Below, in pieces: positions 32,628 to 54,957 of a DNA stretch of 64,000 nucleotides; position 1 is the first letter of the stretch; every line of letters begins with the position of its first letter. The DNA comes from an uncultured Clostridia bacterium (GTDB lineage Bacteria; Bacillota; Clostridia; HGM11327), in NCBI GenBank assembly GCA_945918795.1, contig CAMEIT010000002.1:42-64041 (forward strand). The letters run 5' to 3'. The notes beneath the pieces are model-generated. The model worked only from the letters and a program-made list of their open reading frames with translations. It ran no database searches and was not told the DNA's origin. The position numbers and the translations under genes were made by a program.

Positions 32628-35600
32628 TTAATTAATGTTCACGACAATTTTGTGCGTTTTGCCGTCATCGATAAGCGTTATTTCTCCGTCGGGGCATTCT
32701 TTGCCGTCAAGTAAACAGCCATTGCCCTCCGAACAGATCACGTCAATAATATATTTTGTTTTTTCGCTTCCGTTTTCGCGGTGATATTCCACTCTGAACG
32801 GAAGCATATCCTTTTCAACGACAGGATTTACTCTTATCTTGTCGTTTTTTATTTTTATACCGAGTATATTTTCAAGTATGGTCTTATACATCCATGCCGC
32901 AGAGCCCGTATACCACGTCCAACCGCCCATGCCCACATTTGTGCTTGCGGAATATACGTCCGCCGCGACAACGTAAGGCTCCACCTTGTAATTTTCAGCC
33001 TGTTCTTTTGTGAGGGCATGATTTACGGGATTCAGCATTTTCAGTATGCGCATTGCTTTTGCCGCTTCGCCGCGCATTGCAAAAGCTGTGACGAGCCATA
33101 TTGCACCGTGTGTATATTGTCCGCCGTTTTCTCTTATGCCGCATTTGTATGCTTTTATATATCCCGGATTGCGGTCGGTATCCTTGAAGGGCGGCCAAAA
33201 CAGCTTTACGATTCCGTTTTTTTCATCAACAAGATATTTTTCGGCAGACTCGAGAGCTTCTTTTATCTGCTCATTCGGAGTTATATCGGCAATTGCCGCC
33301 CATGCTTGCGCAATAATATCTATTTTGCATTCATCACATTCGATACTTCCGATGGGCGCACCGTCGTCATAATATGCGCGCCTGTACCATTTGCCGTCCC
33401 ATGCGCTCTGCTTTATACCTCTTTCAAGCATATTGCAGGCTTCGGCAAGAAATTTCATGTCATCCGTTTTATTGAAATATCCGCACACCTTTATAAAACC
33501 CCGAATTACATAGTGTATAAAGAATGCGAGCCATACGCTTTCTCCCTTGCCGTTTTCTCCGATTTTATCAAAGCCATCGTTCCAGTCGCCCGTTCCTATG
33601 AGAGGAAGTCCGTGAGGACCTATCCGGAGTGATTTTTTGAGAGCAAGCATACAGTGCTCGTATAAGGACGCTGTGTTGTCCGAAAAGTATGCTTTTCCGA
33701 AGCTTGAATTTTTACCCTCTTTTATTTCCTGACCTCTCACAAAAGGCACCTGCTCGTTAAATATTTCCATATCGCCGCTGAATTGTGCGTATTCAGAGCT
33801 TACGTACGGAAGAAACACGAGGTCGTCGGATATTTTTGTTCTTATTCCGTACCCTGTTGCTTCATGCCACCAATGCCTTACGTCGCCCTCCTCAAACTGC
33901 TGACGAGCCGCACGGAGAATATGCGTTTTTGCTTCGTTTTTGTCGCAGTACATGAATGCGAGCACATCCTGAAGCTGGTCGCGGAAGCCGTACGCACCCG
34001 AGCACTGATAAAACGATGTTTTTGCATGATATCTGCATACGTAAGCCTGATACATAAGAAAATTATTGAACAGCATATCAAGAGCCTTGTCGTTTGTCGT
34101 GATCTTAAAAGGCCTCGTAAGAGATGAATAATGCAAAGCTACGTCGTTAAGAAGCTTTTTTGCTTTTTGGGGAGATGAATATTTATTTTTAAGCCTTTGT
34201 ATATCCTGTACGCTTTCAGCTCCGCCTAAAAGCAGCACGACTGTCCCTGTGCAATGAGGCTTTATTTCAACAGATGTTTTCAATACGATGCAGTCTGCAC
34301 AAACGCGCTCGCCCGAAGCTCTCCATGACGAATAGTCAAGAGCTTTTGGGTGAGAAAATCCGCCTGTTCTGCCGAAAAAGTCTGATTTTCTCGATAAAAC
34401 CGCCTCAAGCTCTCCCGTACAGCCTGCAAACATAAATCCGTTTTCGGGAATATTCATGTTTTCGGCGTATACAATGCCGCTTGCTTTGCGTACTGTGAGT
34501 GCGATATTGTCAGGCACGGCAGATACGGCCGGTGAAAGATTGCATTCGGCATAATAATAAACGGACAGCTTTTTGCTTATATCGCTTTCGTTTTTAATTT
34601 CGAGTAAGGAAACCTTAACACTGTCCGACGGCGGTACGAAAACGGTTTTTGTAACGCCAAGCTTATTTGCACTATGGCGGTATACCGCGTACCCCAAGCC
34701 GTATGAAACCGTATATTGTCCCGTACCGTCCACAATTCTTGCAGGATTGATATATTGCATTGTCGAATCGTCCTTGATGTACACAGCCTCGGCAGGAACG
34801 TCGCTTACAGGGTCGTTGCACCATGAGGTGAGCTTGTTTTCTCTGCTGTTTTTATACCACGTATATCCACCCGCGCTTTCCGTGACGACAGTGCCGAAAT
34901 CGGCGTTTGCAATTACATTGCTCCACGGGGCAGGCGTGTTTTGACCGTTGTCAAGCAGTATTGTATATTCGCTTTTTGCTTCGTTGAAGCCGCCGTATCC
35001 GTTGAAGAACACAAGCTTTGGCAATATCTCTTCATTTTTAGAGGTATCTTTCCTTATAAGCTTCGGCAGTATGGCAATATTTTCTTTTTTTATGCACTTG
35101 TCTTCAAAAAATATTTGAGCGTATATCTGCGCCTCGCTTCCGTACACCGAGACAGCCGCGCTTTGAGCTATAACAGCGCACTCGTGAGGATTCAGTTCAC
35201 TCTTCAGAATGAATATTCCACCCTTTTTGCCTATCATATCGCGGCATGACGACGTGGATACTATACTGTACACTTCGTCGTAATTACTTTTGTGGTATCC
35301 GTCGTCACCTGTTATCAATACGAGGTCAGCCTTGACGTTCCCGGAAGATATATATTCATATGCGCTGAGGATAAGCTTCAGTCCGCTTTTTTCCGCTCCC
35401 GATGTTTTGCAGCATATTATAGGCAGGTCACCGGAAATTCCGAACTGCCACAAAAGTGTTTTTGCGCAAGGGACAGCTTTTGTTCTGAATGCTTTTTGAT
35501 AATACAATGAGCTCAATATGCTGTTTGCGAGCCTGAAGCGCTTTGAATCTATCCTCTTGTACTGCATCGATATTTTCGAATGCTCAAATGCAAGCTCAAA

Positions 35601-52111: not shown

Positions 52112-53614
52112 TTATTGTTGAGTTGATTTGTCTTTTACAAGAACGTCGTGTGCGCCGCCCTCTACTATTGAAACGGAGCTTACCAAAGTGAGCTTTGCTT
52201 TTTGCTGGAGCTCATCTATGCTGAGTGCGCCGCAGTTGCACATTGTGGAACGTATCTTGCTCAGAGTGATGGCAAGGTTATCATGGAGAGCGCCTGCATA
52301 CGGAACATAGCAGTCAACGCCCTCAACAAATGAAAGCTTTGCCGCGCCGCCCATATCGTATCTTTGCCAATTGCGCGCTCTTGCACTGCCTTCACCCCAA
52401 TATTCCTTCATGTAATTGCCGCTTACCATTATTTTATTTGTGGGACTTTCGTCAAAACGTGAGAAGTAACGTCCGAGCATACAGAAATCGGCGCCCATTG
52501 CAAGTGCGAGCGTTATGTGGTAATCGTGAACTATTCCGCCGTCGGAGCATATAGGTACATATATTCCCGTTTCTTCAAAATACTCGTCACGTGCCTTGGC
52601 AACATCAATAACCGCGGTTGCCTGTCCGCGACCGATACCCTTTGTTTCACGTGTGATACATATTGAGCCTCCGCCGATACCTACTTTTACGAAGTCGGCA
52701 CCTGCTTCAGCCAAAAATCTGAATCCGTCTCTGTCTACAACATTTCCCGCTCCGACCTTGACTGTATCTCCGTAATTTTCACGAATATATGCTATTGTTC
52801 TTTTCTGCCATTCCGTAAAGCCTTCGCTTGAGTCTATGCACAAAACATCGGCACCTGCTTCAACGAGAGCAGGTACTCTTTCGGCGTAATCTCTCGTGTT
52901 TATTCCTGCGCCTACTACATATCTTTTGTCGGAATCGAGCAGCTCGAGCGGATTTTCCTTGTGCTGATCGTAGTCCTTGCGGAAAACAAATGCAACAAGA
53001 CGTCCGTCTTTATCGACAATAGGCAATGAGTTGAGCTTATGATCCCATATAATATTGTTTGCTTCCTTGAGAGATGTGCCCTCCGGAGCAGTATACAGCT
53101 TTTCAAGAGGCGTCATGAACGAAGAAACCTTTTCGTCCATTGACATACGGCTTACTCTGTAATCACGGCTTGTTACTATTCCCACAAGCTTGCCGTTTGC
53201 CGTGCCGTCTTCGGTTACTGCTATTGTTGAATGATTGAGGCGTTCCTTAAGCTCTATTACATCTCTGAGAGTCTGGTCGGGACGTATGTTGGAATCGGAT
53301 GTTACAAAGCCTGCCTTATAATTCTTTACTTTGCGAACCATTTCTGCCTGAGCTTGTATTGTCTGTGAGCCGTATATGAACGAAATGCCGCCTTCTTTTG
53401 CAAGTGCGATTGCCATAGTGTCGTTTGATACTGACTGCATTATAGCCGAAACGAGCGGAATGTTCATTGATATAGCCGGTTCTTCACCTTTTTTGAATTT
53501 TACGAGAGGCGTTTTCAACGATACATTGGAAGGTATGCAATTTGCATCTGAATATCCGGGGATGAGAAGGTATTCGCTGAATGTGCGCGAGGGCTCATTG
53601 TAGTATGTTGCCAT
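52112..53614 (-). CDS. guaB: IMP dehydrogenase
   Basis: 500 aa IMPDH. It has the TIM barrel with a CBS insertion and the active-site loop [12 protein letters not shown]. Confidence 0.8.
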
Positions 53615-53652
53615 TTTTAATCTCCAAATTTTATCTTTTTATATTAATCGTT

Positions 53653-53681
53653 ATTATATCAAACAATAACGTTTATGTCAA
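53653..53681 (-). promoter_or_regulatory. Consensus sigma-A promoter of guaB (TTGACA-N17-TATAAT)
   Basis: On the minus strand it reads TTGACAtaaacgttattgtttgaTATAAT, ~40 nt upstream of the guaB ATG. Confidence 0.7.
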
Positions 53682-53769
53682 GGAAAATTATTTGATATAT
53701 CACATATATCCGCATTCGGGAGCGATTTTTTACATCTGTTGATTGTCACCGAAAGTTGTTATTACGCAG

Positions 53770-53798
53770 TTGACAAATTATTACTGAAATGGTATAAT
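53770..53798 (+). promoter_or_regulatory. Consensus sigma-A promoter with an extended -10 (TTGACA-N17-TGgTATAAT) driving a short terminated transcript
   Basis: Reads TTGACAaattattactgaaatggTATAAT. No ORF lies downstream for ~570 nt. Confidence 0.7.
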
Positions 53799-53805
53799 AT
53801 TATTG

Positions 53806-53975
53806 CTGCACAAACTTATAATTTATTCCATTCATGGGAAAATACTTTGGTAAAAAGGTGTTTTCTCTCTTTACTCATACCATGAATGGATAATATAATG
53901 GACAGAGTTTGTGTAGCGACAATGAGGGGCTCATCTTTTCGGTGCGTTCCTTGTCGGAGCGCACTTTTTATTTTA
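53806..53975 (+). ncRNA. Candidate ~170-nt small RNA or leader transcript, running from the promoter at 53770 to the terminator at 53942-53975
   Basis: Starts with the CTGCACAAAC motif. Contains a 10-bp hairpin CCATTCATGG...CCATGAATGG enclosing ~50 nt. Ends in GTGCGTTCCttgtcGGAGCGCAC + TTTTTATTTT. No SD-led ORF inside. Confidence 0.35.
53942..53975 (+). terminator. Rho-independent terminator
   Basis: GTGCGTTCC/GGAGCGCAC 9-bp stem (one G-U pair) followed by TTTTTATTTT. Confidence 0.65.
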
Positions 53976-54021
53976 TAGGCAAATTGATAAAATCATAAAT
54001 CGGCGCGACAATGAATATTGT

Positions 54022-54221
54022 CTGCACAAACAGGAGCTGAACCGGGCAAATCAAGGGGGGATTTTGTTCCTTTAACAGGAAACATTTTTAATCGGTGCTG
54101 TTGTTGTGCTCGCAACAGACAGTCAATAGATAAATTATGACGTTTTTATATGCTTTTGTGTTAACCCGCAAATATATATAAAATCACTTGGATAAAAACG
54201 GTTCAGCTTCTGTTTGTGCAG
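54022..54221. repeat. 22-bp inverted repeat (54022-54043 and 54200-54221, 21/22 matching) enclosing a ~156-bp hairpin-rich segment. It is either MITE-like or a pair of operator sites. The same 10-nt core occurs a third time at 53806-53815.
   Basis: CTGCACAAACAGGAGCTGAACC against GGTTCAGCTTCTGTTTGTGCAG. All three copies share the flank ATATTrTCTGCACAAAC. Confidence 0.75.
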
Positions 54222-54292
54222 ATAATATGCTCTCAAAAACAATGCGTTTTTTGCAAATTTATTTGATTTTCGGACAATTTGTTACGTAATTA

Positions 54293-54322
54293 TTGACTTT
54301 TCGCTATGCGTTGATATATAAT
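54293..54322 (+). promoter_or_regulatory. Sigma-A-type promoter for the 194-aa membrane protein gene (TTGACT-N18-TATAAT)
   Basis: Reads TTGACTtttcgctatgcgttgataTATAAT, ~50 nt upstream of the GGAGGGA RBS and GTG start. Confidence 0.55.
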
Positions 54323-54372
54323 ATTGACGTATAACATTTGTTTTCATTTGTTGACAGCGGAGGGAAAAAACA

Positions 54373-54957
54373 GTGAATAAGGTCGAAAAAAGGATAAGAA
54401 AAGCAACATTTGCAAACGTTGAAGAAGAATTTTTCGAAATAGACAAAGAAAATCGTATTGCGACTATAAGACTTTCTTTCGATAAGGTGAGCGATATATT
54501 CGACGACAATTATATTACGAAAAAGCCGATATTAAACGGCGACTTTATGGAATGGATCGCCAACGCATTCAGCATAATCCCCTCGCGCTACAAAATAAAG
54601 CTCTCGGTTTCTTTTGCTGATTACGAAGGCTACTCCGAAAGACAACTGAACGAGCTCTTTTTGAAAAATATAATTTTATACGCCAAGAGCAAGCACGGCT
54701 ATCAGAAAAAACGCAACTCGCTTGCTTACGGCTTGATCGCGGTGGGAATCGCTTTTTTTATTGGTATGCTGTTTACGGAGCTTTGCTGGGAAACGGAATC
54801 GATATTCAAAACCATATTCTCTTACGTAAGCGATATAGCCACAACCGTGGCGTTCTGGGAGGCCATGACCATTTTGATAGTGGAAAGAAGGGAACAGCAC
54901 AGTTATATTGTAGCTGTTGAGAAGAGATTTTCGGGCGTTGAATTCGGGAGTAAGTAA
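54373..54957 (+). CDS. Hypothetical protein with a ~115-aa soluble N-terminal domain and 1-2 C-terminal TM helices
   Basis: GTG start 8 nt after GGAGGGA. TM segment LAYGLIAVGIAFFIGMLF. No recognisable family. Confidence 0.5.
   Translation: MNKVEKRIRKATFANVEEEFFEIDKENRIATIRLSFDKVSDIFDDNYITKKPILNGDFMEWIANAFSIIPSRYKIKLSVSFADYEGYSERQLNELFLKNIILYAKSKHGYQKKRNSLAYGLIAVGIAFFIGMLFTELCWETESIFKTIFSYVSDIATTVAFWEAMTILIVERREQHSYIVAVEKRFSGVEFGSK

Follow-up and report, generated by a model that had tools for sequence, protein, structure and literature searches.

The spacer between the gene guaB and its neighbour in the genome of an uncultured gut Clostridia/Eubacteriales bacterium (GTDB lineage HGM11327, assembly GCA_945918795.1) raises the question of what 760 nt with two strong promoters and a repeated motif, and without an evident gene, might be for. 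We analysed 64,000 nt of contig CAMEIT010000002.1 (positions 42 to 64,041 of the forward strand), hereafter called the window, in which this spacer takes up positions 53615-54372 between guaB on the minus strand and an open reading frame (ORF) of 194 aa. The first-pass annotation, made from the letters alone, had considered the repeated motif either as operator DNA or as part of an insertion resembling a miniature inverted-repeat transposable element (MITE). Our analysis led to another answer. The RNA predicted to start at the plus-strand promoter of the spacer probably belongs to a conserved family of leader RNAs acting in cis, in which a terminator/antiterminator switch seems to control an adjacent cargo gene, and the copy in the window stands without cargo. 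A cis leader with an antiterminator, here separated from any gene, had no place in the earlier view.

A promoter-to-terminator RNA unit in the guaB spacer

The ORF list agreed with the first-pass annotation that no ORF of at least 60 codons lies wholly inside 53615-54372; a minus-strand ORF of 75 codons (54282-54509) overlaps the right edge. Both exact TTGACA-N17-TATAAT promoters described on opposite strands were recovered by the promoter scan with 12/12 matching positions, at 53770-53798 on the plus strand and at 53681-53653 on the minus strand, and the extended -10 TG is present in both. From the plus-strand promoter (-35 TTGACA, 17-nt spacer, extended -10 TGGTATAAT) a transcript is predicted to start at approx. 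53804-53806. We refer to this leader RNA as e1. According to the covariance model R1, described below, and to the minimum free energy fold it occupies 53801-53970 on the plus strand and consists of the helices P1, P2 and P3, a linker and a terminator.

The outer helix P1 is formed by 53803-53817, which holds the first copy of the repeated motif CTGCACAAAC, and by 53905-53919 (GTTTGTGTAGCG...), a fourth, inverted copy of that motif. It is an RNA helix of 14-15 bp, completed through two G-U wobbles; the two arms are 83% complementary as DNA and 14/14 paired as RNA. P2 pairs 53824-53837 with 53880-53893. The P3 hairpin at 53836-53867 (strands A and B), with the tip ACUUUGGUAAAAAGGUG, was placed by the fold and the family alignment, and is followed by a C/U-rich 3' internal loop (53868-53879, UCUUUACUCAUA) which the alignment shows to be conserved in the family. 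The linker at 53920-53940 (strand C, CAAUGAGGGGCUCAU followed by CUUUUC) can pair alternatively with the 3' strand of P3 or with the 5' arm and loop of the terminator. The intrinsic terminator, found by the terminator scan and in the fold, lies at 53941-53970 and is composed of GGUGCGUUCC, the loop UUGUC, GGAGCGCACU and a U run. Its stem (53941-53965) has 10 bp, 6 of them G-C, before the T run, where a rho-independent terminator had been described. The repeat search gave much the same helices, with 53799-53816 complementary to 53906-53923 and 53818-53837 complementary to 53880-53899.

The predicted fold of e1 has an energy of -64.6 kcal/mol (z = -7.3 against shuffles). Together the 12/12 promoter and the predicted terminator support the earlier proposal of a discrete RNA unit of approx. 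170 nt. It had also been noted that this small RNA fits none of the recognised riboswitch classes, and indeed no Rfam 15 family was found for e1. At the gathering threshold the whole 64 kb contained nothing but 4 tRNAs. The Rfam scan suggested for the spacer was run on 53500-54500 with E up to 10 and gave chance-level matches only, the best being mir-4875 with 19.5 bits and fstAT with 19.4 bits against a threshold of 72.

Relatives of the leader in bacterial and viral sequences

The spacer was not conserved across 80 guaB loci of GTDB representative genomes. One of the 80 (L024), a blastn relative, carries a leader, placed downstream of guaB in other surroundings; its 3' half is similar, its terminator is nearly identical and it stands directly before a small Cys-rich ORF. 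A metagenome scan with the terminator pattern gave 10 loci, 8 of which were clearly homologous, the promoter standing in the same place and the same helices being formed by different sequences. When the window-type terminator was used as pattern in a first viral scan, zero matches were obtained; the distal stem of the phage members differs. Scanning IMG/VR with a pattern of hairpin tip and terminator base gave at least 120 stretches, including at least 91 true members with at least 48 unique sequences.

We aligned 25 representatives and derived from them the covariance model R1, which covers P1, P3 and the terminator. Searched with this model, the fetched loci gave 62 matches (61 distinct) with 48-154 bits. 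R1 matched e1 over its full length (model positions 1-160) with 131.7 bits and an E value of 5e-27, the sole significant match in the window; e1 was 1 of the 25 seed sequences, and its score is typical of non-seed members. Most members had been found by DNA patterns including the P3 tip and the terminator base, and only two loci, L112 and L223, are independent of them. L223, which scores 96 bits, precedes a DUF1273 gene retrieved only through the similarity of its protein; the terminator base of this leader (UUUUUCAGUGCG) is outside the DNA search patterns, and the leader ends at the start codon. The terminator stem base GGUGCG/CGCAC is common to all members, including these two loci that were not pattern-selected.

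No match to a phage member or to the window spacer was detected by blastn among GenBank phages and PLSDB plasmids, and Rfam 15 gave no match for the phage member L101 either. A description of the leader motif was not found in the literature, also when literal sequence strings were searched, but it may stand unnamed in large candidate lists. The leader family, whose members precede accessory genes of gut phages and mobile elements, is widespread and apparently undescribed. An apparent second leader within the window, in a glycogen phosphorylase gene at approx. 21.0 kb, was discarded, as the two short blastn matches there were chance matches within coding sequence. In one viral contig (L126, 462-661) the P2-P3 region of a leader is joined to its own reverse complement in a palindrome, which may be either an assembly artefact or a real inversion.

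Covariation and alternative pairings

In the R1 alignment of 61 relatives 86.9% of the cells held standard pairs, and changes on both sides were found in 25 of 36 pairs. These values were reached by 0/500 shuffles, and when the structures were slid by 1-3 columns only 41-55% of the cells were paired. Double changes were found in 12/14 pairs of P1 and in 10/12 pairs of P3. P2 is too variable in length for the alignment and was therefore tested by partner swapping, in which the duplex energy of a strand with its own partner is compared with that of permuted partners (23 representatives, 5000 permutations). Own partners were preferred for P1 (z -11.7), P2 (z -12.3, own energy -10.4 against -4.3 swapped), P3 (z -6.9) and the terminator (z -6.6), and equally for two alternative pairings, the linker with the terminator 5' arm plus loop (z -7.7) and the linker with the P3 3' strand (z -6.1); each was matched by 0/5000 permutations, the 23 representatives not being independent and the z values and counts not probabilities. 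Four control strand combinations gave no signal. As the controls have the same phylogeny, relatedness alone does not explain the result.

Judged from the alignment and the partner swaps, all helices of e1 covary. In P2 both sequence and length vary across the family while the pairing is always kept. Among the unpaired parts, conservation is strongest at the P3 tip (YUYGGUAAAAG), the most conserved sequence of the family, at an AUA bulge that separates P1 from P2, and in the loop UYUUUACUCAU. A conserved, structured and covarying domain of the kind expected of a riboswitch aptamer is therefore present.

When the nascent RNA was folded as far as the last base of the terminator loop, P1-P2-P3 and a hairpin between linker and terminator 5' arm, the antiterminator, were predicted in 10/10 diverse members. 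In the full-length RNA of 10 members the terminator fold and the best terminator-free fold differed by 0.4-6.0 kcal/mol. A conserved leader peptide was not found, since no start codon occupies a conserved column throughout the subfamilies, and reading frame and length vary. A UUG in the P3 loop is the sole start to recur, and approx. one third of the subfamilies do not have it; an attenuator working by leader peptide was rejected.

Cargo genes and phage setting

In every member with downstream sequence except that of the window, an ORF of at least 45 aa starts between -1 and 62 nt past the terminator. At the DUF1273/YoqJ-like genes the start codon follows 0-8 nt past the U run, which leaves no room for another promoter, and the sole Shine-Dalgarno-like GGAG sits in the 3' arm of the terminator. 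The promoter is equally fixed at the other end. Among 45 distinct upstream sequences, 34 have an extended -10 whose last base lies 3 nt ahead of the start of the model, and the window agrees with them, TGGTATAAT ending at 53798. By comparison of sequences we have established the membership of e1 in the family, its helices, their alternative pairings and the adjacency of leader and ORF.

The cargo genes are varied. They encode membrane-anchored PASTA-domain (TM-PASTA) proteins, lipoproteins with DUF4839 or DUF6591, a HIRAN-like protein, DUF1273/YoqJ (SLOG) proteins, a Cys-rich small protein and several proteins without family, and no common metabolic theme joins them. PADLOC defence-system profiles gave nothing convincing among the cargo proteins or for the 194-aa protein of the window. 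Three more distant DUF1273 genes have no leader and a divergent gene for an XRE-type regulator instead. At the more distant DUF1273/YoqJ genes of L225-L237 the divergent gene, for an XRE-family helix-turn-helix protein of 96-108 aa, lies 127-190 nt upstream, which suggests that a protein regulator of the XRE family replaces the RNA switch there.

Members in phage contigs occupy a fixed slot. In 25/25 phage members, counted among those with at least 3 kb of downstream sequence, genes for a VRR-NUC endonuclease, an exonuclease and a 918-aa YonO-like RNA polymerase lie downstream on the same strand within 0.7-3.5 kb. L101 (7034-9790) and 24 further viral loci encode this polymerase, a single-subunit enzyme with a full-length match to phrog_4291. 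It always comes after the genes for VRR-NUC and exonuclease, and the slot just upstream is a hot spot of variable cargo. The cassette of L101 ends, after the cargo and a small membrane ORF, in a strong terminator of its own, so that the unit is an autonomous, moron-like cassette. A conserved ORF of approx. 40-48 aa ending in ...GGLWLIWILIRYLRNNS was observed after, or overlapping the end of, different cargo genes (L101 5919-6041, also L103 and L123). The window copy, L091 and L223 are chromosomal members with no phage genes nearby.

A proposed switch and its likeness to known systems

We propose a model with five strands, A and B being the 5' and 3' strands of P3, C the linker, D the 5' arm and loop of the terminator and E its 3' arm. 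A host-type promoter with extended -10 would start the transcript a few bases before the long irregular hairpin of P1, P2 and P3, behind which the purine-rich linker and the intrinsic terminator would emerge. The pairings could then form a chain, A:B being P3, B:C an alternative, C:D the antiterminator and D:E the terminator. With P3 closed, the free linker would capture the emerging 5' arm of the terminator and the polymerase would read through. If strand B were freed or the linker occupied, the terminator would form. That the switch works in this direction, and that an effector exists, we infer from the RNA. The effector might be a metabolite, a protein or an RNA, and the P3 tip, the AUA bulge and the C/U-rich loop would be its likely contact surface. 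At other loci the unit would gate a single cargo gene directly behind the terminator, either an accessory gene of the phage moron type or DUF1273/YoqJ. In the window it would yield mostly terminated RNA of approx. 165 nt, and read-through would cross e2, a second hairpin described below, into the gene of the 194-aa membrane protein.

As modelled, the element would work like a terminator/antiterminator attenuator and look like a riboswitch. It shares with the multi-hairpin attenuators of trp, his and pyr (1:2 / 2:3 / 3:4) the exclusive chain of hairpins, the terminator directly before the ORF and the strand common to antiterminator and terminator. Unlike these it has no conserved leader peptide and has five strands instead of four, and its first hairpin lies within two further covarying helices, whose loops are conserved. 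Terminator riboswitches such as SAM-I, with its anti-antiterminator, likewise have a structured 5' domain, conserved unpaired nucleotides, a choice between terminator and antiterminator and a promoter immediately upstream, whereas P1 of the leader lies outside the antiterminator, no Rfam class applies and the genes are phage accessory genes without a metabolic theme. The phage members resemble morons in being self-contained units of promoter, leader, variable cargo and terminator at a fixed hot spot, but in this family conservation lies in the leader and variation in the gene, and we know of no described morons that share a conserved structured leader. The order of promoter, structured RNA, terminator and abutting gene is also that of type III toxin-antitoxin systems (ToxIN). 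An antitoxin RNA of that type has a tandem repeat array, of which the repeat search detected none in e1, and the genes downstream of the leaders are mutually unrelated and not ToxN-like.

The copy in the window

Several observations weigh against e1 as a working switch, and some of them against the model for the family. All parts of the RNA are present in the window, but no ORF of at least 45 aa starts within 200 nt and the next gene begins at 54373, so that the ORF which follows within approx. 60 nt of the terminator elsewhere in the family is missing. The antiterminator of the window copy was the weakest tested (-11.8 kcal/mol) and the terminator is favoured by 6.0 kcal/mol; with this difference the window copy should mainly make the short terminated RNA. 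In L081, a contig of the same species which is 97.8% identical over 2.5 kb and has the whole arrangement, the -10 of the leader promoter reads TCTAAT instead of TATAAT (L081 1137, window 53794), by which its key A is lost, while the RNA is identical. The window copy may thus be a decaying relic, given the lack of an adjacent ORF and the mutated -10 of L081. As to the model itself, the start and end of e1 and any switching are predictions, an effector is assumed from the structure, and the coupling to the P3 3' strand is deduced from the covariation of short purine/pyrimidine tracts. P1 has no overlap with the antiterminator, so the element departs from the usual riboswitch scheme, in which P1 competes with the antiterminator. 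In part the apparent invariance of the P3 tip and the terminator base is due to ascertainment, and many of the viral members are close relatives.

The window and L081 have not diverged evenly along the locus. The 177 nt of e1 have 0 differences, compared with 0.75% in the e2 region, 1.15% in guaB, 1.3% in a DpnI-type restriction gene that follows the 194-aa gene on the other strand, 3.8% in the spacer just upstream of e1 and 4.4% in the 194-aa gene, the most diverged segment. The absence of differences in e1 is consistent with constraint and lends it mild support.

After e1 follow e2 and then the 194-aa gene (54373-54957, plus strand; ribosome-binding site GGAGGG at 54360-54365, GTG start at 54373), which has its own promoter TTGACT-18-TATAAT at 54293-54322 on the plus strand in the promoter scan. 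Its product is a predicted membrane protein without a Pfam, NCBIfam or PHROG family and is confined to a narrow clade (43 relatives). Orthologues were found on 14 contigs, in approx. 7 different genomic settings besides the same-species contig. The spacers upstream of them are 43-354 nt long, none contains e1 or e2, and each setting has different neighbours. In other species a promoter-like site stands at the same distance from the orthologue and a leader is absent, from which we concluded that the leader is not native to the 194-aa gene. A tblastn search with all downstream proteins found no remnant of a cargo gene in the spacer. It seems that the window copy has lost its cargo gene.

An orphan of this kind could act differently from its relatives. 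It is unlikely, though it deserves to be taken seriously, that e1 is chiefly a trans-acting small RNA (sRNA), derived from a phage or reused from an orphan leader, whose terminator simply ends the RNA and which acts on other transcripts. No ORF follows e1 within 400 nt in the window, the promoter matches the consensus perfectly, the fold with the terminator has an advantage of 6 kcal/mol, and e1 is 100% conserved between two strains that differ by 3.8% in the upstream spacer. Orphan sRNAs derived from riboswitches, such as SreA and SreB of Listeria, offer a parallel in that the window leader ends at its terminator with no gene behind; by that analogy a trans activity might be imagined. Against this stand the ORF that abuts the terminator in all other members together with the covarying antiterminator, as expected of a cis switch, and the change from TATAAT to TCTAAT in the -10 of L081.

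The phage setting allows a further explanation, which we hold to be quite improbable. The leader could be the site for an antitermination factor encoded by a phage, either in the manner of lambda PR'-6S RNA-tR' with Q or of the N/nut type, and solitary chromosomal copies would respond to an infecting phage. Most members do lie in phage contigs, in the slot upstream of VRR-NUC, exonuclease and YonO-like RNA polymerase genes (25/25), and a strong promoter with a short terminated RNA is the layout of lambda PR'. Yet the cassette's own terminator precedes those conserved genes, the covarying antiterminator hairpin favours a competition of hairpins over a modification of the polymerase, and the window copy, L091 and L223 stand in plain chromosomal settings without phage genes. 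A cis-acting terminator/antiterminator switch therefore remains the explanation that we prefer for the leader.

The e2 hairpin and the repeated motif

Between e1 and the 194-aa gene lies e2 (54015-54228, plus strand), a hairpin of 214 nt found by the repeat search and the fold, with arms at 54015-54044 and 54199-54228 (arm sequence CTGCACAAACAGRAGCTGAACC) and a structured interior of 154 nt. The first-pass annotation had seen it as a 22-bp inverted pair. The pair is present but longer, with 30-nt arms that are 93% complementary and 154 nt apart. The RNA fold of e2 is -84.4 kcal/mol (z = -8.3 against shuffles). We discarded e2 as a diverged family member, because R1 gave only 10.3 bits (E = 2) and the likeness is confined to the arm. 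It consists of 16 nt resembling P1 of e1, a score reached by 4/500 shuffles; other short resemblances between e1 and e2 were not significant. Apart from the same-species contig L081, e2 was absent from everything searched, with no matches in IMG/VR, the 216 fetched loci (same species aside) or GenBank phages and plasmids.

Our preferred guess is that e2 arose by local duplication or rearrangement of the outer helix of the leader, and it may be a decayed duplicate of e1. That a MITE-like insertion or another mobile palindromic element came between the leader and its gene, as had been suggested, has little probability. Terminal inverted repeats (30 nt) on a short unit (214 nt) without coding capacity are indeed present, and e2 separates the leader from the next gene at a junction which measures at most 62 nt in every other member. 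No target-site duplication was found, however, as the flanks of the arms (GACAATGA / GCTCTCAA) form no direct repeat, and e2 occurs in a single copy within the 64-kb window and has no matches in the viral, plasmid and locus collections named above. In addition its arms resemble the P1 arm of the leader, suggesting a local origin, and since the 194-aa orthologues never carry a leader no native pair of leader and gene was split.

The first-pass annotation had counted three copies of the motif. All three are present, the first being the 5' arm of the outer helix of e1 and the others the two arms of the e2 stem, but the imperfect inverted fourth copy (53906-53923), which pairs with the first, had been missed. 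The exact motif 10-mer occurs also at 34295. With at most one mismatch 9 matches were counted in the window against 3.9 expected, and 9 was reached by 1/100 shuffles. Three exact copies within 420 nt, this excess and the fairly conserved sequence of the P1 arm among phage members speak for the CTGCACAAAC sites as DNA operators, one at the transcription start and two bracketing e2, which is nevertheless very improbable, as the first copy pairs with 53905-53919 via G-U wobbles that are meaningless in DNA, the arm varies with the pairing kept (GCCACACAAUC, GCGACACAAU, GGACUACAAC, GCAGAACAAC, GCUACGCAGU; wobble variants are frequent) and the extra pair of sites is present in the window only and in no other family member. 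In an operator the site and not the complementarity would be conserved, whereas P1 shows compensatory and wobble changes, and in the 61 relatives the pairing is kept while the sequence varies. The alignment shows the repeated motif to be a strand of an RNA helix, not a protein-binding site. An exact 16-mer (TTTGTGTAGCGACAAT) in common with the 3' arm of P1 was seen in another Eubacteriales metagenome-assembled genome (L023, 5043-5058), close behind a terminator that follows an unrelated gene; with a blastn E value of 0.07 it is probably due to chance.

The guaB side of the spacer

The gene guaB (52112-53614, minus strand) encodes an IMPDH with CBS domains. Its ATG lies at 53614 with a GGAG 8 nt upstream, and the minus-strand promoter (TTGACA-17-TGnTATAAT, 53653-53681, outside the RNA element) fits this start, in line with its earlier assignment to guaB. 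The top match of the protein among GTDB species representatives was 88% at the amino-acid level; an exact look-up of the protein gave no record. A 13-nt inverted repeat (53655-53667 / 53687-53699, TATATCAAACAAT / ATTATTTGATATA, 92% complementary) brackets the -10 and -35 of this promoter and is adjoined by a palindrome at 53689-53706. The inverted repeat could be an operator for the control of guaB.

Significance

The leader family accounts for most of the puzzling 760-nt spacer. More tentatively, and with somewhat less than even confidence, we suggest that it represents a new class of ribo-regulator, a five-strand attenuator free of leader peptide and with a conserved sensor hairpin, which phages and mobile elements of gut Clostridia use as a portable module of promoter and switch for cargo of lysogenic conversion, exclusion or defence. 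The signal would be a metabolite, a host or phage protein, or infection, and the window copy would be domesticated or orphaned. As an apparent orphan that copy is of lesser interest, while the family is of real interest. It is well suited to experiment, with more than 60 natural variants, compensatory mutations that can be designed and a simple read-out of termination against read-through, and could lead to a new ligand or RNA-binding regulator. In the genomes of uncultured phages the leader may also serve annotators as a marker of moron cassettes. If the model is right, it would show how accessory genes are controlled in temperate phages of gut Firmicutes, by a shared RNA switch with interchangeable cargo.

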